Notes under the pieces: model-generated
What the model was told of the DNA's origin: nothing
Databases searched by the model: none
Seen by the model: only the letters and a program-made list of their open reading frames with translations
Assembly (NCBI GenBank): GCA_010093705.1
Contig: MU006091.1
Span: 496,001 to 560,000, forward strand
Direction: 5' to 3'
Source of the DNA: Patellaria atrata CBS 101060
Taxonomy: Eukaryota
DNA: 64,000 nucleotides
Made by a program: the position numbers and the translations under genes
In this document: positions 4,948 to 53,311 of the stretch, piece by piece
Position numbering within the stretch: position 1 is the stretch's first letter
Layout: every line of letters starts with the position of its first letter

Positions 4948-6172
4948 TTCGATGTTGAATGCTCAGTTGAACTAAGTCTGCCTCAAAATACTGGCACTTG
5001 CGGTGCCGTATATGCCTTATATACTATCACAGAGCGCGACAAACGTTCATACTTTTCTCTGGTGAAGATGAGAGCTACAGCTGGTATCTTCCCATAACAG
5101 GGGGGCAAACAACGGATTCAAACGAGAATTCAAAAATAAAAAACCAGGGGCGTTTACTGTTTATCTAGTTGACCGAACGTTAGGCTCCAGTCGGTGTAGC
5201 GCTTTAATGCATCTCGATAGTCTCCTAACTCAATGTTTTATTGGAATCTGGAAGGGAACGGCACAGTAAGGTAAGATATCGAACCTGGAACCGGGGCTTT
5301 ATAGCCCAATCGTCTGGGGAAAGTACGAATGTTGAAGTGTGCCTGCCTGCGGTGACTCAAATGTAACAAGGGATATTGATTCCATTCTTGTATGCACGGG
5401 AATTCATAGGGCTGTTGCCTTAAGTTACAAACGAAGACGTTTCCCTCACTAATAAGGTACCTTACCTAGTTTGTACCTTATTGATATTAGCACTTTTCCG
5501 ACCATCAGGAGGAACCCAGGAGGCTCAAAGAAGATATTCCGCTCTGATTGAGTAGGACCAAGGGGACATCTCGAATGTACCTTAAGTTGTGCGGCACAGT
5601 TCGCCACAAGTTGAGGAAGGTCAGCCTCAAGGGCAGGCTATGTCAATGGAAGAAGCTAAGCTTAGTAAGGTAGGTCGGCGTGGCGATAAAGGGAAAGACG
5701 GGATCGCATCGCGACTACAAAGAAAGGAAGGAAGCACCGGTGAAGTAATAGAAATTTTACGAAATGACATGTGATATCGGATGATCGGAAATCTAAATGA
5801 GTCTGATGACACCTCAGGATTGGTCTTCTCATAAGCTAAACCACTGAGGATGTACTTCATGGATTAGACAAAAGTAACAGAAAGCTCTATTCGATGAAAA
5901 GTTCCCAGTGTTATCACTCTCTTCAAACCTTCTTAAAAGCTAACAAGGTGGTAAGTGAAAGACCCCGCTCATATTTGCCAATAGTCAGGATGAACTCCTA
6001 CGCCCATGGATGCATGCAATCCAGCATTGTGGTCTGCGGCGTGGGGTGTAGTTCAAGGTAGGTACAATGCCTTACTTGCATACGGAATAACTAATCAGAG
6101 AATTTCCAGCCTCACCATCTTCTTCCAAGGACGCTCTCTCTGTCGGATTATTTCCAAGACGCGATGCTAGCG

Positions 6173-34451: not shown

Positions 34452-36343
34452 ATGGCTGTCCATCAGTTTGACTACATTTTCGCCTTGGGCGTGATTTTCG
34501 CCTTCCTCGATGCGTGGAACATCGGTATGCTATGCTTCGCTAGGTAGCTTGATGTGAACTTCATACTAACGAGCAAAAGGTGCTAACGATGTCGCCAACT
34601 CGTTCGCGACATCGGTTTCTTCCCGTTCTCTTACCATGATGCAAGCTATGGGCATTGCTACTGTCATGGAGTTCACTGGCGCTATGGCTGTTGGAGCTGA
34701 AGTCGCAGACACCATCCGTACTAAAGTCGTTGATCCGGATCTGTTCGCTGAGGCTCCAACTGTTCTCATGTTGGGAATGTTGTGTGCCATTGTCGGATCC
34801 TCAATCTACCTAACCATAGCTACGAGGCTCGGTTTGCCTGTCAGCACAACTCACTCCATCATGGGCGGTGTTATCGGTTCGTCTATCGCCTCAGTTGGAG
34901 CAGCTCAGGTGAACTGGGGTTGGGATGGTGTCTCTCAAGTGTTTGCTGCATGGGCTATTGCTCCAGCCTTGGCCGGTTCCTTCGCTTCCATCATTTTCCT
35001 CGTCACCAAATACGCAGTTATGAAGCGCCAAAATCCCGTCCGCAACGCGTTTTATACCGTTCCATTCTACTTCGCGCTGACATCCGGACTATTGACCAGT
35101 ACGTTCCAATATCTGCTTAGTATTGCAACTTCAGCTAACCACTATCGTAGTGCTTATCGTCTGGAAGGGTGCTTCATCTAAGATCAAACTCTCAGGTGGC
35201 GAGATTGCTGGAACCATCCTCGGTGTTGCTTTCGGAGTTGCGGCCCTTGTCTGCATCTTCTTCCTACCATACCTTTATCGAAAGCTTATCTGCGATGACT
35301 GGGAGCTGAAGTGGTGGCAAATCCCTCAAGGTCCCCTTCTCCTCCGTAGGCCCGCACCATCACCCCAACCAGAGGGCTACAACGACGGTATTCAAAACTA
35401 CTATCGCGGCCACAAGACACTTGCTGAGCTCCAAGCTGAGAGGGAGGCCAAAGCGGCGGCGGCGGCCACGAATCCCACTGATGTTGAAAAGAACGCACAC
35501 TACACCGCGAAGAGCACCGCTTCTTCTGACAATATCACCCCTGACGGAACTACCCACAAGCATGTTGCACTCGTTGATGAGGATCTTGAGCCAAGACGAA
35601 TTCCCCCACCAGGACCTTGGTATTCTCCCAACGTCGCCTTCTGGCATGCCAAGCGCGCCTTTTTGCACGGTGTCGAGAAAGACGTTGTCAGCTCTCAAAA
35701 GACGAAGAGTGTCCTTTCCGGTGATCTTGAACGGACTCATGCCCTTGCCGAACACTACGATAACAAGGCTGAATACATGTACTCGTTCCTCCAGGTCTTG
35801 ACCGCTGCGACCTCATCTTTCGCCCACGGAGCTAACGATATCTCAAACGCTGTTGGTCCTTTTGCTACCATCTACCTCATCTGGAACACCAACAACGTGA
35901 GCTCCAAGGTTCCTGTACCTCACTGGATCCTCGCTTTCGGTGGTGGTGCCCTCGTCATTGGTCTCTGGACTTATGGTTACAATATCATGCGTAATTTGGG
36001 TAACCGCATCACTCTTCACTCGCCATCGCGCGGTTTCTCCATGGAACTCGGTAGCGCTATCACCGTCATCATGGCTACTCGTCTAAGTGAGTTTAACTTT
36101 TTATTCCCTCAACCATGATTTGCGACTAATGAAACTATAGAACTCCCCGTCTCTACCACTCAGTGTATCACTGGTGCCACCGTCGGTGTCGGTCTCTGCA
36201 ACGGCACCTGGAGAACCATCAATTGGCGCATGGTCGGCTGGATCTACGGCGGTTGGATCATCACCCTCCCCGTCACCGGCATCATCGCCGGCTGTCTCAT
36301 GGGCATCATCATCAACGCCCCAACATGGGACAGCCCGTTGTAA
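34452..36343 (+). CDS. PHO89: Na+/phosphate symporter (PiT/PHO4 family, Pho89-like)
   Basis: Four exons. AWNIGANDVANSFATSV, LPVSTTHSIMG, SFAHGANDISNAVGP, HSPSRGFSMELG and LPVSTTQCITGA. Confidence 0.95.
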
Positions 36344-36547
36344 ACTCTTGGCTTCAAAAATGGGGTTTTCTTCGCCTATTCATGTACAACTTTTTCTCTC
36401 TAAGGGCATAGGGCATGGCGGGTTTGGGGTATCTTGACGATTTGAACGCGTCACTGTCCTTTTTTTATTTCTCTCTCTATGTGATGATACAGCCAGCCTA
36501 TATATCAATCGCTAATCTAACGTCTTTGCAAGACGGAATTACCTCTA

Positions 36548-37273
36548 TTATGAGCCTTTTGCGGTGTAGTGAGTCAGGGTGGTGGATACGCGATCGCTAA
36601 GTGCTGGTCGTACCATGCAGAGCGTCGTGTAGGACCCATGACCGGTGACGTCCACGGTCACAGAGTCCCGCTCCTCGAAGCCGAATTTGCGGTACAGCCG
36701 CACGCTGACGGGCGAGGCTTCGATGTACGCAGCCACGTCTTCCGCATCCGCGAGCGAGACGATCTGCTGCAGGAGGAGGGATGCGGCGCCCTTCCCTTGG
36801 TGGGCGGGGGATGTGGCTAGGAGTTCGATGTCTGGATTACGTTAGGACGCTCGAGGCAAGGGGGGGCTTTTTAAGGGGGTAAGAGAAAATAACTCACACC
36901 AATGTCCCCTCCCACCCATCACCCTCCTCCTAACCTCCTCCAGGCGGCCGAAAAACACATCGCAGAGTTCTGCGTCCGAACCCTCGGGCCAGGTTGACTC
37001 TTCGGCCGGTTTCTCGGTCCATGTGCTAGGGGCCCGGTTGCCTTTGATCCAGGAGATCGTTTCGGACCCGTTGGAGGTTAGGGTAACGGCTTTTAGGAAT
37101 ACGGCGGCTGGGTCTGAGAGCTCGGAGGAGAGCATGCGGGACCACCAGGCGTGGATGGGGGCAGTGTGGGGGAAGGCGCGCAGGGCGAAGGCGTTGGTGA
37201 AGGAGGCGAAGTAGATTGTGAGGATTGTAGGGAGGTCGGAGGGTGTGAGGGGGTGGGGTGTTATTTGGGACAT
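36548..37273 (-). CDS. GNAT-family N-acetyltransferase
   Basis: One intron (about 36833-36897). Exon 2 gives WYIELLATSPAHQGKGAASLLL (acetyl-CoA motif A) and YIEASPVSVRLYRKFGF. Confidence 0.88.
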
Positions 37274-38015
37274 TGGGGGTGAGGGGGAGGGGAAGGGGGG
37301 AAGAGGGGGAAAGGTGATGTGGGGTGATGGAATGGCAATGGGGATGGGGTGAACGTTGAAATGGGAAACATGGAGTGCGAGGTGGAGTGCTTATATGTCT
37401 TTGGACTGCTGCACTCGATATACTTTATACTGTGGACACCGAAGCTCGATATGTTTTTGAAATATGAATTTATGCTGCGGTGTCTGATAATGGACCGCGC
37501 TGGTGGTGTTGAAGTTTTAAGGCGGTGTTGGGATGAATAATCCCGGGCCATACCTTATGGAGGAGCACGGCATCCTTGCTAGGCTATGTCACCATGGCAC
37601 GATAGGAAAGGTGCAAAAGTTTACACTAACGACAGATATAAATCTGGGATAACCTCCCATCCCGTCTTGATGTTCTATCTCAATTTACGTTCTTGAATCT
37701 CCACCCTAAGGAATAATGTTAGGATAGTTAGCTAACTTTAGTTCTAATCTTTCATTTGGTAAGTGCTATGTTATATACTGTACTGTTTAGTACAGTTGAA
37801 ACAACCTCTCGCATTGTAGTACTTGTAGATTTAGCTATATGTCCAGAAATAAAGATAAATATTAAAGTTCTTTTTTCACAAAGCCTTGTCAAAAATAAGA
37901 GTGCACTCTGTAGTAATAAAGAATCGTCTCATATTTACCATATCATTCGCAATGGAAGAGGAGATCATTCAAAAAGGATCAAAAACAAAAGGGAAAACCG
38001 AAGTTAAATTTTTTC

Positions 38016-38198
38016 AAAAAACAAAACAATTGGACCCGTAAGGCCTCCTTGAACCCCCCCGGACGGGTTTTTGCTGTCACTGCTCCATTGACCTGAGGCT
38101 TACCGTTAAAGCCGCCCGGACGGAGTTTCGAACCGACGACGTTCGGGGAGGGGGCCCGGAGTTGTGGTTAAACTGCCTGACTGCTCTGCCACAAGTTA
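38016..38198 (-). ncRNA. Putative tRNA-derived RNA polymerase III transcript (structured ncRNA, SINE head or tRNA pseudogene)
   Basis: A-box-like TGGCAGAGCAG (38191-38181), B-box-like GGTTCGAAACTCC (38134-38122), T4/T6 terminator (38026-38016), and long self-complementarity between 38161-38140 and 38065-38045. Confidence 0.5.
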
Positions 38199-39098
38199 GT
38201 TAAGAATACAATTTCTCCCGGTCAAGTATAAAGTACCGGGTGGATGCCAAAAGGGGAACTAATGCCAAGCGCGGTATTGTTGCTCAGGGACGGCTAAATG
38301 GAGTGAATAGGGGGGCATCACGTGCGATACTGGAACGTTTATGGCCCAGGGAGATTTAGCTTGACTCGGTTTCTTTTGTGTTATTGCTATAATCATGCTT
38401 GCTTCTCCGTCATCCCCTTTTCTTCAATCAGGAAAGCAAAATTGCACAGGACAATAGTGGTATATTCAAGCTCATTTCGCGCTAGTACCCTCCAAACAGT
38501 CATATCAACTGGAAGGATATTCTCTTAATGGAAGGTGTAACATGCCTCCCTTATATTCGTATCCGGGCAGTCCTCTCATTCATTCTTCCAGCATTAAACG
38601 GACCTTCACCGCACCTTAGCTAGTAAATTGTAAAAATACCGTTCTTTCTCAACCTCTGACAATAAAACCGCATTTAGAAAAGACGATTTTGACAAGGTGT
38701 GTACGGATCACCTTAACACATTGACCACTTAAAACCGCCGTTCAAAAAAGGAGAACAAATCCGCAGAACAAACCTCCTTCTACCATATAGGCGGAGAGGC
38801 GAAGTAAACCACCGCAGCTCTATCTAGTCTAGACAAGGTAGGGCAGTGGTTTGGCCCGGGAACTGCTCCTGGAACATCAATGTTGCCTGTCTACGTCCCG
38901 TACTGAAGTCACATTAATGACACCTTCGCACGGCGGAAGTGAGGGAAAGCAATATTACATCGAGCGAAGCGACCGCTGTATATTGGCTATTCTCCTACCC
39001 ACAATACAATCTACATCCAATGTTTTCAGTAGAAACGCCTTCCAATGCATCCAAACCCCTACTCCCATCCAATGCTATGCTCCCAATATTCCAATTCA

Positions 39099-40999
39099 TC
39101 AGTCCTCGTCCGAGTCCAGCATCATGCTATCTCCCCCTAATCCCGTCATCCGTCTTTCCTCATCATCTACCTGATCCTTATTAGCGCGCCTAGTCCTTCT
39201 CGCGGTCACGGCATCCCTCTTATTCGCACCGATCTTTCTCTCAAACTCGTCCTCTTCGCTCTGCCCCATGATCGCAACTATTTCGCTAGCCTCTAGCGCC
39301 TTGCTCAGCAATTCCGTGGCTATAGGATCTTGAGGGCTGACTGCAAGAGCCTCGTGCAATGCTACGACCGCACCCCAGCAATCACCCATTTCTAACAAAA
39401 CGAGACCTTTGGCGCAAAACATGCCTGCATCTTTGCCCCCTTGACGGAGAACTTCTTCGAATTGCTCCAGTGCGAGTTCATACTGATACTCGCGCCGGTA
39501 CGCATGTCCTAAATTTGCGCGCGTGGCAATCCAAGCCCGTGGGTCTGAATTTATCTGCTCAGCTAGGGTCAGAGCTAGCTTGAAGATCTTTATGGCCTCA
39601 GAACGATGGTCTTCGTGATAGAATACTACGCCGAGTTCGTTTAGAAGTAACGGATCCGTACTGCAAAGATCGTACGCCGTATTAAGGTATTCGTGCGCCA
39701 AAGGCATATTGTTGAGCTGCAGATTCTGCATTCCTAAAAAGAGTTGTGGGAGATGTGTGCCTTGGAACAGTCTTGCGGCAGTAGAATAAGCGGAGATGGC
39801 TTGATCGTGTTCCCCTTCCGCTGCAAAGGTATGTGCGAAGCCAATCCAAGCGGGGCCGTAGTGCGGATCCATCATCGAAGCTTTCGAAAAGAAGCGCCGA
39901 GCTTCCGCGATTCGGTTAATGGTTAGATAGTAAACGCCCACTGCAAGCCAGGCACAAGGTTCTGAAGGATGACGGTCGGCGAGATCGTGGGAGAGAAGGA
40001 ACAGCGCATTCTTCTCATTGAGTTCGTGCAGACAAGCGAGATGTATTGGAAAGGTATTGAAGTTATATTTATCTTTTGCAAGAATGGAGGTCGTGAGAGC
40101 GAGCGCTTCCTTGAAGCGACATTGGGTGAACAACAATTCTGCTTTTGCCAACAAAATATCTGGATTCTCTGACAAATTGTAGTGAGTTGACAATGTCTCA
40201 GTAGCTGTTGTAAACTCTTCAGGATGAGAGTATTTGGAAAGTCGTGTGGTATACAACATCCTAGTAAACTCGGCCGCCTCCTGGGATGATGAAGAATCGC
40301 CAACGGAGATGATGTCGAAGTTGAGACACTCCAAGAATTTCCATTCTTCCTGAGGAGACATTAAAGAGTTCTTCATGAGCTGATCGAAAGCTTCAAAACA
40401 CTGGACGTCAATGCGTACGGCATCTTTATAGCATTCCTTTGCTCGATCGAATGCGTTTTGTTTCGCGTAACAGACTCCGCGAAGATAGCACATGGCTGCT
40501 TCGAAACGTATGTTGGAGATATTCTCCTTATCGCGCTCCTCACTCCGATCGGCTCTCTCAAGCTTCTTCTCAGCCTTAGTTTGCTTAAACAGTCCATTCC
40601 GAGCACTGCCATCGAGATGTTGTAGTTTCCTTCGCGCACTTCCCGGGGCCGTTATTAGATGGGTGGGATTCTTGTCCCCTAATATATTTAGGGCTTCATC
40701 GAATTTTCCCTCCTTGACGAAGCAATGCGCTGCGAGATATTTACATGACGGGTTGTTGTTGATTAGGTCCTGTCGAGTTAGGAAACTCCGAGCGTGTGTA
40801 TAATTCCCGGTTGAGAAGTGAACCTGGGCCAGCCAGAACGCGTCCTTATCGTTGTCTTATACTATTAGCTGAAATGTATTCTAGAGCAGTGACACTACGT
40901 ACTTGTCAGCGCCAGTAGCTTGTCTCCTATAAAGATGGCCGACTCGTACTGATGTTTATTTAATGCATCCTGCCGCCAATCACGTAGAAACTTCTCCAT
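39099..40999 (-). CDS. CDC16: Anaphase-promoting complex subunit Cdc16/Cut9 (APC6), TPR protein
   Basis: MEKFLRDWRQDALNKHQYESAIFIGDKLLALT, one intron, then DAFWLAQV, ARRFFSKASMMDP, AWIGFAHTFAAEGEHDQAISAYSTAARLFQG and DPLLLNELGVV. Confidence 0.95.
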
Positions 41000-41705
41000 G
41001 CTCGAATTAGAGAGAAAACTTGCATGAATGCGACCGTACTAAAATGTCGCTTTGCAAAATAAAAAGTAAGAAGTGTGACTATGGTGGAAATAAACTCCTG
41101 TGGTAACCTCTTTTCTAACCGCTGAAATGTCCCGCAAAACAACAACAGTACAGGGCAACCGCGGAGCTATGAAAGATATGTTTGGACGGTTTGGACAGTT
41201 TGGATCGTTTGTTGTATTTGGTAGACTTGACAAGGACCGGCCCTACAACTCTTGGTTCGCAGCCTGTTACCCTAAGTTTTGATTGGTTTAATGACTATCA
41301 AGCTCTTTCGGATTAACTAATGACCCTTGATGCTTCTGACTTCGTCAACTGCAACGCCCATTTCTCGTCTGTAAGGTCGCGTCCCATCATTTGCATTAAG
41401 CCTTCACAGGCCTTATATCTTTGCGCGCCCGCAGCTTCACCCAACCCAAAGTGCTCTTGATTTTTCTTCAGGCGGGCGGCGGTTGTCTGGTTCCGACTTT
41501 CATGACTTTATGAAATTACCTCTATACTAATTAAACAACAACTGCGAATTCTTCGATGCTTTTCGCAGCAGCCTTTCACCATAAATCTTCTGACCTGCGA
41601 ACCAGTTCGAACCAGCAACGTCGACCCGACCTGCCTTGCCCGTTATATCTACCCACTATCTCACCGCCGAATTGAAAGGGAGCTTCTATAATTTGCCTAG
41701 GAACT

Positions 41706-44700
41706 ATGTCTTCCGAAAGAAATATGGAAGTCTATGCTGCAAAGCTAGATGACCCCAATCTTGGTGAGTTAGTTAAGATCCCTCAGGGACAAAGCTCAAC
41801 AAGGCTTTATGATGCATTTTTGATGTGCTTGGATGTTTACTTATCCCTGTGCGCAGATATCAGATCTAAGATCACGTTTGCGACGGAACTCCGCGACAGT
41901 ATTGAGCTATGGTGTCAAGGCTCTACATACAATTCATTTTTACAGCGGCTAGTCCCTGTGTTTCTAAAGCTGCTTGATGGGCCACCGGTATTTATGAGCA
42001 ATGCTCCGGAGCAGGTATGGTCTTCGCTTCATAGCTGTGCAAAGCAAAACTCATTCTGATTCAACATGCCATATAGAGATTGCGTAACTGCATTTTCGAG
42101 ATTCTCCACCGATTACCAATGACCCCGGCCGACGCACTAGAACCATATGCGCCACGAATAGTGGATCAATTGATGGAACTGGTGAAAATTGAAAATGACG
42201 ATAATGCGGTGCTCTGTATGAAGACTATAATGGACTTTTGCAGACATCAACCGAAAGCTCTGCAAGAACGCGTACAATCATTTCTGGACCTAATTCAGGA
42301 GCTCTTTCTGACAATGGACCAAGCAGTTAGAGATACCTTCGATAGTCCAGCTTCCGCTGTCGCGCAGGCTATACCTTCTACACCAAACAATTCCCAGTAC
42401 TCACAATCTCCAAGACCGGGTTCACCGGTTGCGTCGGTAACTTCCTCTGATCTAGGGAGTGAACAGTCGCAAGCTAGACCGTTGTTGAAGGGGATGCAGT
42501 CCTTCAAGGTTCTAGCAGAGTGTCCGATCATTGTCGTCTCCCTTTTTCAGTCTTATCGTAATTGCGTCCATAAGAACGTCAAGTTGTTCGTCCCCCTGAT
42601 CAAGAATGTTCTATTGCTTCAGGCCAAACCACAGGAACGAGCTCATGCTGAGGCGAAAGCGCAAGGGAAGGTCTTCACTGGTGTCAGCAAGGAGATCAGA
42701 AATCGAGCTGCCTTTGGTGACTTCATCACGATGCAAGTCAAGACGATGAGCTTTCTTGCGTACCTTCTCAGAGTATATTCGCAACAGTTGACGGACTTTC
42801 TGCCGACCCTACCAGATGTTGTTGTGCGGTTATTGAAAGATATACCAAGGGAAAAATCGGGCGCAAGAAAAGAGCTTCTGGTGGCAATTCGTCATATCAT
42901 CAATTTCAATTTCCGGAAAATATTCCTCAAGAAAATTGATGAGTTGCTGGACGAGCGCACTCTTATTGGGGACGGTCTTACTGTTTACGAAGCCATGCGG
43001 CCGTTGGCTTATAGCATGTTAGCAGACTTGATCCATCATCTGCGAGAATCTTTGTCTCGAGAGCAAATTCGCAAGACCGTCGAGGTTTATACGAAGAACT
43101 TGCATGACAGCTTTCCGGGCACTAGCTTCCAAACAATGAGCGCAAAGCTACTCCTCAACATGGCCGAATGTATTGCAAAACTAGAGCCGAAACAGGATGC
43201 GCGATACTTTCTTATCATGATACTTAATGCGATAGGAGACAAATTCGCTGCTATGAACAGACAATACAAGAATGCTGTCAAGCTTTCCGAGCAGTATACA
43301 CCACTCTCTATAGAAGCTGCTCCGGAAAACTTTCTCGCCGACAAGGATAGACCACCGGATTGGGACGAGATCGATATATTTAGTGCCACCCCCATCAAGA
43401 CTACTAATCCAAGAGAGCGTAGTTCGGACCCAATCGCGGATAATAAGTTCTTGTTTAAGAATTTGCTTCATGGGCTTAAGAATTTGTTCTACAATCTTCG
43501 AGCTTGCAATCCACCCCAGATTAAGCAGGAAATTGAGACTGCTAGTGCGCCGGCAAATTGGCATGAGGTCTCATTTGGATATAATGCGGAAGAGGTGGAA
43601 GTTCTAATCAAACTATTCCGTGAAGGTGCTCGCGTTTTCCGCTATTACGCCACAGATAAACCAGGGAACGACAGTCAAGCATTGAACGCGAGCGAACTAA
43701 TCGCAAATCCCCATATGATGTCGAGTAATAAAGAGGAAAAAGAATTGCTGGAATCGTTCGCCACAGTGTTCCATCACATTGATCCAGCTACTTTTCATGA
43801 AGTCTTCCAATCGGAGATACCGCATCTGTATGATATGATGTTTGACCATGCTGCTTTATTGCATGTACCGCAATTTCTACTGGCGAGCGAAGCAACATCG
43901 CCCAGTTTTGCTGGCATGCTTCTGCAGTTCCTCATGGGAAAACTAGAGGAAGTTGGTACATCTGACACGAAAAAGTCATCTATTCTCTTACGACTATTTA
44001 AACTGTCCTTCATGGCCGTCACTCTCTTTTCGTCGACAAACGAGCAGGTACTTCTACCACATGTTACGAAGATAGTCACACAGTCGATCAAGCTGTCAAC
44101 CACAGCTGAGGAGCCAATGAATTATTTCTTACTCCTAAGATCACTCTTTAGGAGTATCGGTGGAGGTCGTTTCGAGCATCTCTATAAAGAAATTCTCCCT
44201 CTTCTGGAGATGATGCTTGAGGTGCTAAACAATCTTCTCCTAGCTGCGCGCAAACCTACTGATAGGGACTTGTTCGTGGAACTCATCCTCACAGTTCCTG
44301 CACGCCTAAGTAATCTGCTTCCTCATCTGAGTTATCTCATGAGGCCTCTCGTTGTCGCGCTCCGTGCTGGCTCTGAGCTTGTTGGCCAAGGTTTAAGGAC
44401 GCTAGAACTTTGCGTAGACAATCTCACCGCGGACTACTTAGATCCGATAATGGCTCCAGTCATCGACGAACTAATGGCAGCACTATGGGAGCACCTGAAG
44501 CCAAATCCTTACAGTCATTTTCATGCTCATACTACTATGCGCATCTTGGGAAAGCTTGGTGGTCGCAACAGAAAGTTCCTCACTGGACCACCTCAGTTAG
44601 AATACAAGAACTTTGCGGATGACGAGCCCAGCTTTGATCTCCGACTAATTGGATCAACTAAGGACAAACCTTTCCCTTCGACCATCGGGATTGAACATGC

Positions 44701-47700
44701 TATTTTAAAGATAATGGAGGTTCCTAAGAACCCCAAGGAGAAAAAGTCAGACGCATTCCACAAGCAACAAGCGTTCAAACTCGTAGCTGCGCAACTCAAA
44801 TTGCAAATTGGTGCAGATACGTTGCCTGAGGATTTTGCACAACTTGTTCGTCTACAAGCTAATGATCTCTGCGCAAGGAAGTTCGATGTTGGCCAAGATC
44901 TCATGAGCATCTCGGAGCGAGATAAGTCATCCGCAAAGAAAGATTTCCAGCAAGAGACCATGAAAAAGCTTCTGAAGGCATGTTTTATTGCTGTATCCGT
45001 ACCGGAGCTTAGAGAAGAAGCTAATTCTATGATCACTAATTTGTGCCGTCATTTCACCCTGCTAGAAATTGGACGGGCCCTAGCGCAAGCCAAACACGAC
45101 CGGAAGCACTTTGATGTCAAGTCCGGAGAAGGACCTGTTGTTATTGATAGTAGAGTGATCGCTGATGCTATCTCGGAATCTCTCGCGTCCGATATTCCGG
45201 AAGTTAGGGATGTAGCAGAAAGGGCAATTGTCGAAATTCGGGATGCAGCGGTGGTCATCTTCGGTTCTGCCGAGAAAATCGACACGCTCCCATTTTTCCT
45301 CCATATTGCGCGCACCTTCATTCACAATTGCCATCAGGAGGAGTGGTTCACCAAATCTGGGGGGACTTTAGGAATTGAGATTGTATGCACCAAACTGGGA
45401 TTAAGCGATGCGTGGATCAATGAGCTACATCTCCAATTCGTTCGTGCGTTAATGTATGTCATGAAGGATATGCCCCAGGATCTGTCTGCTCGAACTCGAA
45501 ACCAAGCTCAAGCAACCCTTGAGACCCTACTTCAACGCTGCAAATTTATGTCCAAGGATGATCTTAGCAAACCCCAAAGCAAGCTCTACCAGTTATGTGG
45601 ATCTCTCATATATGAACTAGCCCACATGAACAGACATGTCCGGGAGATGGCACAAAAAGCATTTGCTTTAACGGCAGAAGTTGTCGGCGTAGAGGTGCAC
45701 GAGCTTATGATGCCAGTCAAAGATCGATTGCTCAATCCTATCTACAACAAGCCGCTTCGAGCTCTTCCCGTCTCGGTTCAGATTGGATATGTTGATGCGA
45801 TAACATTCTGCCTGAAGATTCCGCACAACATGCTTGAACTCAATGAGCAACTCCAGAGACTACTAATGGAATGTTTAGCGTTAGCAGATGCCGAAGATGA
45901 ACTCCTCGCGAACAAGCCTACAGAGCAGCGAAATGCCGAAGCTATCGTCCAACTTCGAGTCGCGTGCCTTCGGCTCTTGTCTCTTGCGCAAAATCTTCCT
46001 GAATTCAACGCTTCTCCACCCAACCAGAGCCGTCAAAGAATCATCGCGATCTTCTTCAAGTCCCTGTACTCCAAATCACCCGATGTAATTGAAGCAGCGT
46101 ACTCTGGTCTGCAATCCGTACTCACGGCTACCAGCAAACTCCCGAAAGACATCCTACAGGGCGGCCTACGGCCAATTCTAATGAATTTGCAAGATCCACG
46201 AAAGCTCAGCGTAGAAGGATTAGAGGGCCTTGCTCGACTCCTTAAACTTCTGACTAACTACTTCAAGGTTGAAATCGGGTCAAGGTTACTAGATCATATA
46301 AAGACAATTGCAGATCCTACGGCGTTGCAAAAGATTTCGTTCACTCTTATCGAACAGAACCGTCAGATGAAGATTATCGCAGCTATCTTCAACGTGTTCC
46401 ACCTTCTGCCCCCGGCCGCTATTTCTTTCCTTGAACCTCTGGTTAAGAAGATCATGAAGCTTGAGACATCTCTGAGAAGGACACATTTCAGTCCCTTTAG
46501 AGAACCCCTACTCAAGTATTTGAATCACTATCCTAAAGAATCTTGGACTTTCTTCGCTCCTTTACTTAAAAACCACGCTGATGGTCGATTCTTTGCACAG
46601 ATTCTAGCAGATCCAAGCAGTCGTCCACTACGTGATGTTGTTATCCAGGATGTTCCGGGGCTTTTGAAAGCTTTTCAAGTGAATGACGAGAAAGAGAAAT
46701 GGCCTGCTGCTATCAACGGTATCCATGTCGCGTTCGCAATCTCGAACTTCCCCGAACATAATTCGTGGCTGGTTAATAACGATAATCTTCGTAAAGGATT
46801 ATTTGAAGCAGGTAAAGGACTTGAAATCCGGTTTCGACAGAATACGATTGATCCCTCGTTGCGTCTTGCAGCAGAGCAGGCTGGAGAACATGTTATGAGA
46901 GTCTTCACAGTATATCTCGCCCAGGAGCCGAATAATCTGGACTCTTTCTTCGATGTAGTCGAGGCCGTTACCGCTGAAGAGCTGCGAATGTCTTCCGCAT
47001 TTATTCAGTTTATTTACAGCGAGATGATTTCCAACCATTCAGTGGAGTATTGGCGGACGCTTGTGCTAAGATCCATCGAGGTCTACACTGGCCGCAATAC
47101 GTCCCAGAAAGCAAAGACTTTCGCCTTTCATTATATCGTAAATCCTATTTTTGCGATGGATGTGAAACGAAATTGGGACTCTCTCTTTGGACTTACCAAA
47201 GGCACGAAGTTAATGGACAAGAGCATGACTGAAGCGATACACAACCGTCTTTGGCGACCACAATCCTCAAGCGAATCAACAGAAGAAAGCGGTCAACTAG
47301 GTGTAGACCACTCTCGTATGGAGTTGTTGCAACTAACAACGATGTTGATCAAATATCACCACAACCTAATATCAGAAACCAGAAAGGATGTCATCAAATT
47401 TGGTTGGAATTATATCAGGCTTGAGGATGTAATCAACAAACATGCAGCATATGTTCTGATTGCATACTTCATTGCTCAATATGAGACACCTCATAAAATC
47501 GCCGTCCAAGTGTACAGTGCTTTACTTAGAGCGCACCAGAATGAAGGCCGTTCCTTAGTAACTCAAGCGCTTGAACTCCTAGCTCCGGTGCTAAAGAAGA
47601 GAATTGGTGGAGGGGACGCAAAAGTCAACATGTGGGCGCGAATTCCTCGAAAGATTTTGAGCGAAGAGAGCTCTAACCTTCAGCAACTGATGTGCATTTT

Positions 47701-50700
47701 CAATTTCTTCGTCAGGCATACAGATCTCTTCTATGAGGCCAGGGAGCAACTCGCCCAGATAATTATACCGGCACTCCAGAAGATTGCAGCACCACCGAAC
47801 CCTTCTAATGAAAGCAAAAGGATTGCTCTTAACCTGATCAATTTGATCTGGCAATGGGAGGAGAGAGCTGCGAAAGAATCCGTCTCTTCACCAGACCGCT
47901 CTAATAAGTCTCCCTCGAAGCGTAAGGTAGATGGTGCTCCAGTACCTTCATCGAGTAATTTGGGTTCTCGAAACTTTGTCGCTCCCGCTCCTATTCGAAT
48001 GATGTTAATCAAATATATGATCACTTTCATTATTTCCTTACCCGAACGTTATCCGACAACGTCTTCGAAACTCAAAGAGCAGCACTCTACCCACCACATG
48101 CCACCCCAGTCGACAGAAGTCTGTCGAAAATCTGTCCAGCTTCTTCGTAATCTTTTGTCCCCTCCTTACTGGACTGATCTAGATGTTGACCCTATTCTCC
48201 AGAAACAGATAGAGTTAGTTCTCACCTCGGAGCTCAAGGGAGATGACAAACCCGAGGCTTGGACTACAAGAATCATCAATACTCTCCAGGTACTGAAGGT
48301 CATCCTTAATGTGAAATCTGACGATTGGGTTCTGAATAGAATGTCACATCTTCAAAAACTTTGTGAGAAACCTCTTCGCATGGACAATCCAGAAGTTCAA
48401 GACTGCCTTCATGACAATGATTCCGAGATTGGGGATGAAGCACGCCCAACTCTCCAGTATCAGCCTCTCGTAAAGCGGATCTTAGACGTGATGCCTGAGG
48501 TAAATATCGAGGATGAGGACCCGACGGAGACCCCATCCACCGAATTTGTAAACTTCTGTGGAATAGTAGCTACCGAGACTTTGTCTAATGGAAGCCATGT
48601 TCCCGCGGTAAATCTATTGTGGACTTTATGTCAAAGGCGGCCCGATGAGATTGATCAGCACCTTCAACATCTCATGAAGGCGCTACACTCAAAACTCGCG
48701 AAAGAACACCTTTCAGCCAACATCCCAGCGCAAGGTCAAGCAGCTATGGCACCAAACCTGAGACCGGATACTCAAAGCAGCGCCCCTCCTGATCCCTTTG
48801 AATTTCAGATCCAGATCAGTTTAATTCTCAAAGTGATTGATACAATGTCCGCCCGGATGAATTCACTAGGCGACCAACGGCGACCGTTCCTGAGCGTTTT
48901 GGCTTCTCTGGTTGAAAGATCTCAAAGTAATGAAGTATGCCTCAAGATTCTATCCCTAGTCGAGAACTGGATTTTCCATTCAACTGAGGTTTTACCTACT
49001 CTAAAGGAACGCGTTGCTGTTTTGCACAAGATGCTGCTTTTTGAACAGAGACAGGATTCTACACTGTTGACTAAATTCCTCGATCTTGTCATACGTATTT
49101 ATGAGGACCCAAAGATTATGCGCAGCGAGCTTACTGTCCGTCTCGAACATGCCTTTCTTATTGGTACCAGAGCTCAGGATGTTGAAATGCGGAACCGTTT
49201 CATGACTATTTTTGATCGAAGTATCAGTCGTAGCGCGAGTAGTCGTCTGAAATATGTCATAGCTTCGCAGAACTGGGATACCTTGCAAGACAGTTATTGG
49301 CTCAACCAAGTTATTCAGCTACTTTTCGGATCGATAGAGATGAATCCCGCCCTCAAATTACACGAAGAAGACTTCAAAACAATCCCGGCGTCTACTCTAT
49401 TTAATACTTATTCCAAGGATTCGCGTCTTTCCGATCTGGTGATTGACGATCAACTCGACTCGTTCGTTGCAAGCCACCGTCGATTTTGCCTTTCACTTGG
49501 CGACGTTAAGATTCGTGACATTCTGGAGCCTCTCGGCCAACTACAGCATACGAGTAAAGAACTTGCACACAAGATATGGGTTCCACTTTTCGGAATGTTT
49601 TGGCATGCGCTGCCGAAGGAAGATCGTCCCTCATTCCAAAAGGACATAGTGGGCCTACTCACAAAAGACTACCATACAAGACAGATCGATCAGAGACCGA
49701 ATTGTGTCCAGACACTTCTGGAAGGCTGCGTATCTGCCAAACCCCGCTTAGCGTTCCCTCCTCATATCATGAAATATCTTGCTCGAACATATAGCGCTTG
49801 GTATACGGCAACAACATATCTGGAAAACTCTGCGAATGACCCCATTGTAGATACCCCACTAGTTCGTGAGAGCAACCTAGACTCGCTTCTTGAGATTTAT
49901 GCTGGCTTAGAGGAGCAGGATCTGTTCTATGGCACATGGAGGCGGCGATGCGAATACATCGAGACGAATGCAGCCCTTTCATACGAACAGAACGGAATGT
50001 GGGATAAAGCTCAGGAGATGTATGAGATGGCACAGATCAAAGCTCGAACTGGGACTCTACCCTTTTCTCAGGGCGAATATATGCTTTGGGAGGATCATTG
50101 GGTTCAGTGTGCACAGAAACTACAACAATGGGAAATTCTGAGTGACTTCGCTAAGCATGAGAATTTTAACGACCTAACACTGGAATCGACATATCGGGCC
50201 ATCGAATCCTGGAGCAATGCTGAGCAGAGGGAACAATATGATTCAATTATCAAATCCGTTTCGGACGCTCCGACTCCTCGGCGTGTGTTCTTCCAAGCGT
50301 TCATGTCCTTATTGAAACTGCACAACAAACAAGAGACTCCACAGGAGTTCAACCGAATATGTGACGAAGCAATTCAGCTGTCTATTCGGAAATGGCATCA
50401 ACTACCAAAACGGATCACCAATGCGCACATACCCATCTTGCAAAACTTCCAGCAGCTAGTGGAGCTACATGATGCTAGCGTCATCTGCTCCAGTTTAGGT
50501 CAGACTACTTCAGGTAATTTGGATATCAAGTCCCAAGAGCTCAAACTCTTGCTTACTACGTGGCGTGATCGACTACCAAACTTCTGGGACGATATCAACG
50601 CATGGCAAGGCCTAGTCACTTGGCGTCAACACATATTCCAACTAATCAATGGTGTCTATCTCCATCTCATTCCGCAAAACCAAGGTGGTGCGACAAGTAA

Positions 50701-53311
50701 TTCTTTCGCCTACCGAGGTTACCATGAGACTGCTTGGATAATCAACAGATTCGCACATGTTGCTCGTAAACACAACTTGCCAGATGTCTGTATCGCGCAG
50801 CTGAGCCGCATCTATACTCTGCCGAATATCGAAATTCAGGAAGCTTTCCTGAAGTTACGGGAACAAGCAAAATGTCACTACAGGAACCGATCGGAACTTC
50901 AAAGCGGCCTTGATGTCATCAACAATACCAACCTCAACTACTTTGGAGCTCAGCAAAAGGCAGAATTCTATACTCTTAAGGGCATGTTCTTGAACAAGCT
51001 CGGGCAGACGGAAGAAGCCAACGATGCTTTTGGAAGCGCTCTGTATTTCGACATCAAGCTCCCTAAAGCATGGGCCGAATGGGGTTATTACAATGATATG
51101 CTCTTCAAGGAAAATCCCTCACAAATAGACAAAGCAAATTCTGCGATTAGTTGCTACCTCGAAGCTGCAAGTCAGTACAAAAACGGCAAATCTCGAAAAT
51201 TACTAGGAAGGATTCTGTGGCTTTTAAGCCTGGATGACTCTAATCGCACTCTTGCCTCTGCATTTGAAGCTTTCAAGGGCGATACGCCGATATGGTACTG
51301 GATTACATGGATTCCTCAGCTTCTCGGCAGTCTCTCTAGACAGGAAGCTCCTATCGCTCGAGTCATCCTTGGCAAACTTGCAAAAACCTATCCGCAGGCT
51401 TTGTTTTTCCAGCTTCGCACAACTCGAGAAGATATGCACGTCATCCGTAAGCAACAGGAAGCAAAAGAAGCGAAGGAGAAGCGCCAGAAGCAAGTTCAAG
51501 GTACTCCCGATGTCAAACAAAGTTCTCCTGAACGGTCGTCCACTGCTTCAGGTGCTGGTACAAGGCCTGGAACGGCGAACGGAGAGAATCAGGCCAACGG
51601 TGTGCAAACGACGCCGAAACAAGAGGGGAATGGGGCTTCCACTCCCAACGGTGCTACTGGTGCAGCATCTCCTGAAACCCCGAAGAAACCATGGGATTAC
51701 ACGGAAGAGATCATGGCTTCACTCAAGACTGCATTTCCACTACTTGCTTTATCAATGGAAACTATGGTTGACCAGATCCACAAGCATTTCAAGTGTCCTC
51801 CAGATGAGGATGCGTATAGATTGATAGTCGCTTTACTCAATGATGGTATGACATTCGTTGGCCGATCACCTACTAACTACGGGCCCGATGTCCATCTACC
51901 TAGCTCTACCGAAGCAAACATTACCCGCTTTGCTGAGTCTGTTCTTCCTGCGCATATCCGAAAGGCGTTCGAGGCCGATTTTGTTACTAAGAAACCGACT
52001 ATGTACGAGTACATCCAGAAGTTAAGGAAATGGCGCGCTAGATTTGAAGAAAAACTTGACAGGCGGACTCTTATCCACCCTTTCGAAGCGTACAGTCCAC
52101 ACTTGAGCGAATTTAGGTTCCAAAAATTCGATGAGGTTGAAGTACCTGGACAGTACTTGTTACACAGGGATAAGAACCAAGACTTCGTGCGTATTGAGCG
52201 CTTTGCGTCGAAGGTCGACCTTGTTCGTGGCATTGGTTACAGCTATAGAAGAATTAGGATCTTGGGTCATGATGGAAGCGTCCACCCGTTCGCTATACAA
52301 AATCCTGCTACTAGACATTCGCGACGAGAGGAAAGAATTATGCAGCTATTCAGGATATTCAATGGCGTCTTGAGTAAGCGCAAGGAAAGCCGTCGGCGTA
52401 ACCTTCAGTTTAACTTACCTCTCATGGTTCCTCTTTCTCCTGCTGTTCGCATCGTGCAGGATGACGCTTCATACATCTCTCTCCAAGGAGTCTATGAGGA
52501 CTCATGTCGCCGTCATAGTATTAATAAGGATGATCCAGTGTTGTTCACAGTCGAGAAGCTGCGTCAACTTATGCCAGTAAGTCTTCCATATCCTGTTCAA
52601 CGAGCATTCACTAACCATGCCATCCAGCGCAACATGGAACAGGCAAATGCCATCCGCCTGGAGACGTTCATCGCCATTCAAGAGCGCTATGTCAGCCACA
52701 GCCTTGCGCTCGACTATTTCCGGGACATATACCCCACCTTTGCAGACTTCTGGCTTTTCCGCAAGACATTCAGCTATCAGTTTGCAGCATTGACATTCAT
52801 GACATACATCATGCATATGCATACTCGTTATCCGCACAAGCTGTCCATCTCACGGGCAACCGGCAATGTCTGGGGTTCGGAGCTTGTCGCATCGCTGGCA
52901 GGCACTAAACCGACGTTCCACAATCCCGAAGCCGTGCCCTTCCGTCTAACACCCAATCTCCAGACGCTCATGGGCCCTCTGGCAACCGAAGGCATATATG
53001 CCCCTACTATCATGGCCATCGCTCGGTGCCTCACTGAACCAGAAGGCGAGCTTGAGATGCAGCTCTCGATTTTCATCCGCGACGAGATGATGCTGTGGTA
53101 CACACAACAGCACCGTCAGCAAGCGGCAGATGGACAGCTGAGGGAAAATGTCCAGATGAACAGCGATCTGGTGGTCAAGCGGGCGGTCAGCCTGGCACAA
53201 CCTCCGAACGGGAATCTACCGGCGAACCAGACAGTTGTAGATTTAATTGCTTGTGCCGTCAATCCTACGAAACTTTGTCAATTAGATGCGCTTTGGATGC
53301 CGTATTTATAG
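41706..53311 (+). CDS. TRA1: Tra1/TRRAP PIKK pseudokinase, scaffold of SAGA and NuA4
   Basis: About 3800 aa with HEAT, FAT, PI3K-like and FATC regions. [55 protein letters not shown] and the C-terminus LDALWMPYL. Introns 41764-41856, 42015-42076 and 52577-52627. Confidence 0.98.

Follow-up and report, generated by a model that had tools for sequence, protein, structure and literature searches.

The tRNA-like unit at positions 38201-38016 (minus strand) of the window, the whole 64,000-nucleotide stretch of Patellaria atrata DNA that was analysed, is a real feature and one somewhat worn member of a dispersed family. A DNA search of its own genome (28.7 Mb, 127 contigs) returns 21 matches to a unit of approximately 175 nt. 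On sequence grounds the best reading, to which we give an even chance, is a family of tRNA-derived Pol III small-RNA genes that multiplies with its own promoter, like the dispersed fungal 5S genes. The upstream signals are shared between copies and the hallmarks of SINEs were not found, which argues for duplicated small-RNA genes rather than ordinary jumping elements. The initial annotation had presented the unit as the best candidate in the window for something undescribed and had offered three options: a tRNA-derived ncRNA, a young SINE or a TFIIIC-bound boundary element. The first of these fits best, but the unit belongs to a 21-copy family and is not a single undescribed gene, as 20 further copies exist.

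Layout and copy number

The motifs of the unit were confirmed from the letters. The A-box-like element TGGCAGAGCAG lies on the minus strand at 38191-38181 and the B-box-like element GGTTCGAAACTCC at 38134-38122, 46 nt further on, as the initial annotation had described. The A box differs by one change from the family consensus, TGGCAGAGCGG. The B box is a subfamily form with a 2-nt insertion, which is identical in six copies. It fits GTTCRANNC and does not fit GGTTCRANNCC. The putative transcription start region is the conserved 5' end AACTAAC (38195-38201, minus strand). The pattern of this 5' end has 14 matches in the genome, all of them family copies, and its reversed control has 3. Upstream of the start, a TATA-like TTTATA (38227-38232, minus strand) lies approximately 30 nt ahead, and a CACGTG, which we take to be of the E-box type, lies 118-123 nt ahead (38319-38324; L001:1830-1835, where L001 is the window copy). 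The TATA-like element had been placed inside an inverted repeat. TTTATA (38232-38227) does lie inside CCCGGT...ACCGGG, but this 6-bp repeat occurs only in the window copy.

The remaining elements are all on the minus strand. The family hairpin P1 (GGTCAG/CTGACT, 38166-38182), which probably derives from the old D-arm and anticodon region, is damaged in the window copy. It is followed by a pyrimidine-rich linker (38141-38165) whose length varies from approximately 0 to 25 nt among copies. The 5' arm of a 15-bp central stem (38108-38122) is seen in MFE folds, and the 3' arm (38056-38070) is placed by the family alignment. Between them is the central loop (38071-38107), which is the best-conserved segment of the family in a hand count and holds CAGGTCAATGGAGCAG at 38095-38080. 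A 3' hairpin (38032-38046; family form AGGCC-TACG-GGCCT) is also placed by the alignment. The terminator-like run spans 38016-38026. It contains the T6 that had been noted, at 38021-38016, and an additional T4 at 38026-38023.

The window copy is intergenic, and the genes on both sides are on the same strand as the unit. The upstream neighbour is a CDC16/APC-type TPR open frame (39099-40856, minus strand) whose protein has its nearest clusters mostly in the Ascomycota. The downstream neighbour is a GNAT acetyltransferase (36548-37390, minus strand) made up of two open frames, of which only the 3' one has a Pfam match. The assembly holds up at this locus, where a contig of sequencing run X1, a run that is possibly from the source sample, covers 37305-41500 with 0 differences. 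The window also contains a PHO4-family phosphate transporter at approximately 34570-36400. Near the CDC16-type gene is a 3744-codon open frame (42077-53311), which looks to us like Tra1/TRRAP.

Identity to the window copy is 73-89% among the other 20 copies (E 1e-42 to 2e-18). Their existence makes the unit more than a chance likeness, and at this level of identity the family is not the "young" SINE that had been suggested. The window copy is at the worn end of the family, with a family-model score of 181 bits versus 229 for the best copy. No copy is nearer than 42 kb to a contig end, and the copies are found on contigs C1-C25. The count of 21 is a lower bound, with the covariance model run on selected loci only. 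Pattern searches with the core, the head and the tail add no copies: their exact matches (17/17, 20/20 and 14/14, respectively) all fall inside the 21 loci. When one mismatch is allowed, the core pattern has 71 matches versus 64 for its reversed control. The family outnumbers the 5S genes found in this genome (21 versus 13).

The family alignment contains 19 copies; L020 was left out for its gap of Ns and L064 was added to the set later. In this alignment, AACTAAC is followed by a spacer of 2-5 nt, the A box, the short hairpin, the variable pyrimidine linker and the B box. The 15-bp stem enclosing a loop of approximately 37 nt, the 3' hairpin, and TTTTG with more T-runs lie 3' of the B box. 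The A box is present in all copies. GTTCRANNC, read by eye, is intact in 16 of 21 copies, and the B box is broken in the other 5. T-runs are found 3' of all 20 copies with a readable 3' end. The copies thus have an A box and a B box at workable spacing and then a T-run, which is the feature set of a type-2 Pol III gene. Compared by eye, the head can be aligned to the Leu/Ser-type tRNA genes of this genome. A type-2 Pol III layout and descent from a class II tRNA gene (Leu/Ser type) are supported at the level of sequence. Subfamily markers (B-box length, the 3' hairpin pair and linker type) are mixed among copies, for example in L014. This mixing suggests gene conversion or recombination between copies.

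Upstream signals and flanks

An exact TTATA begins 29-31 nt ahead of the start in 10 of the 21 copies, and all 10 fall in a 3-nt band of 13 allowed spacings. The other 11 copies have near matches to TTATA at the same place, as judged by eye. Ten of the 21 copies have CACGTG within 125 nt upstream, in 7 cases at 57-75 nt. Among the control loci, 1 of 43 has CACGTG within 150 nt upstream; these loci are 30 of 39 tRNA matches, 12 of 13 5S matches and the SRP gene. Five of the 21 copies, none of which has CACGTG, contain, 76-111 nt upstream, a back-to-back B box that is on the opposite strand and is followed by a T-run (L002:1397-1406, L005:1749-1758, L006:1759-1768, L009:1390-1399 and L010:1778-1787). 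The divergent B-box pattern occurs 6 more times outside the bodies in the 21 loci. The remaining 6 copies have neither an exact CACGTG nor a divergent B box, and several carry one-letter variants of CACGTG.

The five divergent units are themselves Pol III-like. Each consists of a B box with a T-run 15-40 nt later and stands head to head with a family copy, whose TATA it could share. They were considered as a second repeat family and rejected, as searches with 2 of the 5 matched only themselves at the search sensitivity.

The flanks of some copies are also similar. In two pairs of copies, chosen by eye, the upstream flanks align nearly gap-free, with 70/122 and 69/121 identical columns. Four control flank pairs have 51/145, 41/143, 37/170 and 48/130 identical columns. 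The bodies of the same two pairs are identical in 147/176 and 151/171 columns. In L005 and L006, the upstream similarity stops near -90. The 5S genes of this genome also duplicate with their upstream flank: L056, L057 and L058 share approximately 200 nt (1301-1500). L052 and L055 are two 5S genes with an identical 100-nt upstream sequence, and several 5S genes have TGATA-like letters near -30.

The upstream flank of a Pol III gene is not part of its transcript. The TATA element, CACGTG and flank of the family lie outside the transcript and must therefore have been duplicated at the DNA level, later selected, or chosen as an insertion target. Judged from sequence, a shared upstream promoter and flank would be the family's addition to the known kinds of tRNA-headed unit.

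Under the preferred reading, approximately 21 putative small-RNA genes would have arisen from a class II tRNA gene (Leu/Ser type) with loss of the cloverleaf. TFIIIC would bind the A and B boxes and TFIIIB would be placed on the TATA element. Pol III would then make an RNA of approximately 175-185 nt that runs from AAC to the U-run. The tRNA-like head would serve mainly as an internal promoter, as do the RPR1 and SNR52 leaders in yeast, and the stem and its conserved loop would be the working part, most likely bound by a protein. A bHLH factor on CACGTG may tune output. The multiplying unit would be approximately 300 bp long, promoter included, which is below the length on which RIP acts. Birth-and-death turnover, as in dispersed fungal 5S genes, would account for some copies being pseudogenes. 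The initial annotation had used the retention of CpA dinucleotides as an argument against a RIP-mutated repeat. This argument is moot because RIP acts on repeats longer than approximately 400 bp (PMC5555474, in the available text).

A close parallel is with the dispersed 5S families of filamentous ascomycetes, which are reported to evolve by birth and death with 18-83% pseudogenes (work cited in PMC5555474, as summarised there). Both consist of short, single, scattered Pol III units that end in T-runs, include broken as well as intact copies and have a duplicated upstream flank, as seen for the 5S genes of this genome. Unlike the 5S families, the present family has no 5S sequence, has a type-2 rather than a type-1 promoter, is more divergent between copies and has neither a known function nor known cross-species conservation.

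A wider claim is speculative and rather unlikely to hold as a whole. The family may represent an overlooked multicopy class of tRNA-derived Pol III genes in filamentous ascomycetes, which would not be retroposons and would spread with their promoter. These genes would be wired to bHLH factors through CACGTG, unlike ordinary tRNA and 5S genes, and their loop would bind a protein, possibly SRP54, as a condition-regulated decoy.

Comparison with SINEs and other mobile elements

The family has the head-plus-body structure of a SINE2, with a tRNA-related head, an unrelated body and dispersed copies. In none of 20 copies does a direct repeat of at least 8 nt (7-nt seed) adjoin the start and recur after the end; L020 was left out for its N gap, and duplications that are shorter than 7 nt or eroded would escape this search. 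The initial annotation had held that many dispersed copies with target-site duplications would mark an ordinary SINE. Many copies exist, but no duplications lie beside their ends. Flanking repeats are found further out in three copies: at the TATA element in L003 and L017, and as an 11-nt repeat at approximately -47 in L001.

The 3' ends of the family are T-runs and not an A-tail or a simple repeat. An A-run directly follows the T-run only in L010 and, as a short run, in L001. In L010 (1469-1500), T18 is directly followed by approximately 13 As, and this may be a pair of terminators placed back to back or, alternatively, the family's one A-tail. The genome has 78 reverse transcriptase matches, the majority interrupted by TAA/TAG stops, and no match to the tail of the family model was found in the 20 retroelement loci searched. 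The matches of the tail pattern (14/14) are inside family copies. One LINE copy that was read to its end finishes in poly(A).

L080, L081 and L082 are broken copies of one LINE family, which is presumably Tad-like. L081 finishes near 5030 with a short hairpin and poly(A), and L080 is cut before its 3' end. Genome-wide, the stops in reverse transcriptase frames are almost only TAA or TAG, as RIP-type mutation would give, and many of these frames are on small contigs or near contig ends. A link to LINEs through the first 18 bases of the family (two LINE copies, E 6-9) was rejected as chance, as the match is well before the LINE 3' end and apparently within the end of the coding region.

The flanks of the copies are not unrelated to one another, as those of SINEs are, in that TATA spacing, CACGTG and collinear flanks are shared. 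A MITE or other DNA transposon was also considered. No shared terminal inverted repeats were found in 9 of the 21 copies, and the AT-rich ones in L011 and L012 are unrelated to each other. The unit has the construction of a SINE2 and appears to function as a type-2 Pol III gene would. Three SINE features do not hold for it, however, and it is not filed here as a SINE.

Among the alternatives, a low-copy, tRNA-derived SINE with a T-tail is the strongest, and we regard it as possible though doubtful. A LINE enzyme would have copied a U-ended master RNA by reverse transcription into T-rich sites, or the RNA would have been steered to TBP-bound promoters approximately 30 nt past the TATA element, and the copies would be decaying without a function. 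T-tailed SINEs exist in plants, and T-run ends therefore do not exclude this subtype. The classic head-plus-body layout, the 21 dispersed full-length copies and the presence of LINE-type reverse transcriptases in the genome are as this explanation would have them. The bodies are far more alike than the flanks, which later insertion or gene conversion from cDNA would also give. It is opposed by the lack of a target-site duplication, A-tail, simple-repeat tail or LINE-shared 3' end in the copies searched, and by the TATA element, CACGTG and collinear flank outside the transcript, which require targeted insertion as an extra assumption.

Low-copy, tRNA-related, SINE-like families are known in Aspergillus fumigatus, and in the available text of the same source MgSINE, Foxy and nrs1 are other tRNA-related fungal SINEs (PMC5063351). 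AfuSINE2 of A. fumigatus has target-site duplications of 4-14 bp, and one such element has a LINE-like repeat tail (PMC5063351). The present family resembles these fungal SINEs in its tRNA-derived head with A and B boxes, its unrelated body and its short, low-copy, dispersed units. Unlike AfuSINE2, it was found to have neither duplications nor a LINE-like tail, ends in T-runs and shares upstream promoter motifs between copies. This contrast is with the description of AfuSINE2 in the source.

Short fungal repeats with a tRNA head are routinely filed as SINEs. If the preferred reading is true, some of them would form a layer of Pol III genes that has not been catalogued and that is under gene-specific control from upstream. 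The family would also be a tractable case of a tRNA gene giving rise to a new small-RNA family, and of Pol III genes spreading below the size limit of RIP. Should it prove to be a T-tailed SINE, it would still be unusual in having inserted at a set distance from a TATA box. Should it lack both expression and conservation, it would be a minor repeat. A literature search, with limited reach into subscription papers and with supplements outside its scope, found no published account of such a family.

Fold, RNA identity and related Pol III loci

In the 19-copy alignment, 93.8% of cells are paired in the P1 hairpin and 92.1% in the central 15-bp stem, with no double changes in either. The 3' hairpin is 95.5% paired, and both partners of one of its pairs are changed in 6 of the 19 copies. 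The three stems together are 93% paired, and 27 of 500 shuffles reach the observed pairing. Covariation, for which the initial annotation had proposed a search, is not above shuffles among these 19 close paralogues: its score is reached by 36 of 500 shuffles and the count of doubly changed pairs by 495 of 500. The one doubly changed pair probably reflects few events. An alternative fold with an inner hairpin performs worse than the family fold on the shuffle test and was rejected. The folding of the window copy is at the level of shuffles (z -0.03 and +0.11), and the MFE z-scores of four copies range from -1.41 to +0.31.

Two helices of the initial annotation need correction at the level of the family. 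Its long helix uses the pyrimidine linker, which is hypervariable between copies and absent in L013. This helix does not appear in the MFE fold and is confined to the window copy. The stem common to the family is instead CC(T/G)TCCGGGCGGGTTT with AAACCCGTCCGGGGG. The T-arm-like stem is no more than 58% paired over the 19 copies.

The central core departs from the consensus in approximately 34 of 874 cells (~4%) versus approximately 108 of 1368 (~8%) in four other segments, by a hand count that is inflated by changes shared within subfamilies, treats cells that are not independent and leaves out the leader, linker and B-box segment. The 16 intact B boxes of 21 compare with approximately 14 expected under neutral decay at approximately 6% per site, which is our own estimate. 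By the shuffle test and the B-box count, changes in the body look largely neutral, which favours the T-tailed SINE. Outside this genome, the core pattern has 0 matches in metagenomes and a gapped pattern has 0 in viral contigs, in collections that hold few fungi. A looser pattern has 16 matches in metagenomes and 16 in prokaryotes, 0 of 32 of which score with the family model (best E 1.5).

The unit had been described as not a tRNA, and ARAGORN finds 0 genes in the window, in agreement with that description, and 0 in the 20 family loci. No match to RF00005 was found, and a relaxed, intron-aware run of the ARAGORN type gives long spurious predictions, none of which coincides with the unit. The proposed Rfam check gives nothing at gathering score and only chance-level matches at E<=10. 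There is no match to 5S, U6, RNase P/MRP, snoRNA or other Rfam families for the window copy or the family loci searched. Aspergillus has unassigned ncRNAs (PMC2377427, in the text available), and the Rfam searches matched the family to none of these. Matches to raiA (partial, 14.9 bits versus 101), NEAT1 and miRNAs were rejected as chance. Two other readings were also set aside. AACTAAC followed by YAG could be a branch point and 3' splice site, but the AG varies freely at unconstrained A-box positions and TRGY is largely kept. The 3' end could be an Sm site, but TTTTG also trails many tRNA genes of this genome.

An improbable alternative is that the copies act as DNA, as TFIIIC/TFIIIB landing pads that form chromatin boundaries in the manner of ETC sites or ZOD1 in yeast, and that the RNA plays no part. 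The copies are deep inside large contigs, the window copy is intergenic and five copies have a second, back-to-back B box, all of which would suit a boundary. However, the best-conserved part in the hand count is the loop 3' of the B box and not the boxes, and 5 of 21 B boxes are broken. Yeast has both weak loci derived from tRNA genes and TFIIIC-only sites (PMC5356446, in the available text). The family resembles ZOD1, iYGR033c, ETC, RPR1 and SNR52 in that an old tRNA gene serves as a promoter, with boxes 5' of a different RNA body. Unlike these single-copy loci, it has 21 copies with their own conserved body and an upstream CACGTG (PMC5356446, as far as described there).

It is similarly improbable that the RNA is a milRNA precursor, a Pol III tRNA-headed transcript whose central stem is cut by Dicer, as in Neurospora milR-4. 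A 15-bp stem is common to the copies, but this is short by the standard of Dicer duplexes and the loop it encloses has approximately 37 nt, and it is the loop and not the stem arms that is best conserved. The acceptor and T stems, which are what RNase Z reads, have been lost (the T stem at the pairing given above). According to the available portion of PMC3547838, Pol III makes the Neurospora milRNAs, which have TATA-like elements and poly-T ends, and a tRNA precursor is the source of milR-4. The family shares with milR-4 and other Pol III milRNA genes the Pol III layout, TATA-like element, poly-T end, tRNA origin and downstream stem, but milR-4 follows intact tRNA-Ala genes that are cut by RNase Z (PMC3547838), and the family has lost its cloverleaf and has a short stem.

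The least probable alternative, which we consider very unlikely, is a mimic of an SRP domain, in which the loop retains the CAGG/AGCA letters of the internal loop in SRP helix 8 with no GNRA tetraloop and the RNA is a decoy for SRP54. Like SRP RNA (RF01502 Fungi_SRP, RF00169 Bacteria_small_SRP), the family has a Pol III layout and a long stem topped by CAGG...AGCAG letters; unlike SRP RNA, it has no GNRA loop and no Alu domain and scores far under the cut-off. L003 aligns end to end with Bacteria_small_SRP at 14.4 bits (E 2), but the gathering score is 40 and the match is not repeated for L013, for L007 or in 19 whole loci. The likeness to helix 8 that the initial annotation had seen thus stays at chance level in Rfam model searches. 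SRP identity was rejected: the family model gives no match to the SRP gene of this genome, which lies elsewhere (G000:C2:1863209-1863490, L021; Fungi_SRP 121 bits), and Metazoa_SRP finds nothing in the genome. ACTAAC also directly precedes this SRP gene, whose B-box region is similar to the divergent units upstream of L002, L009 and L010.
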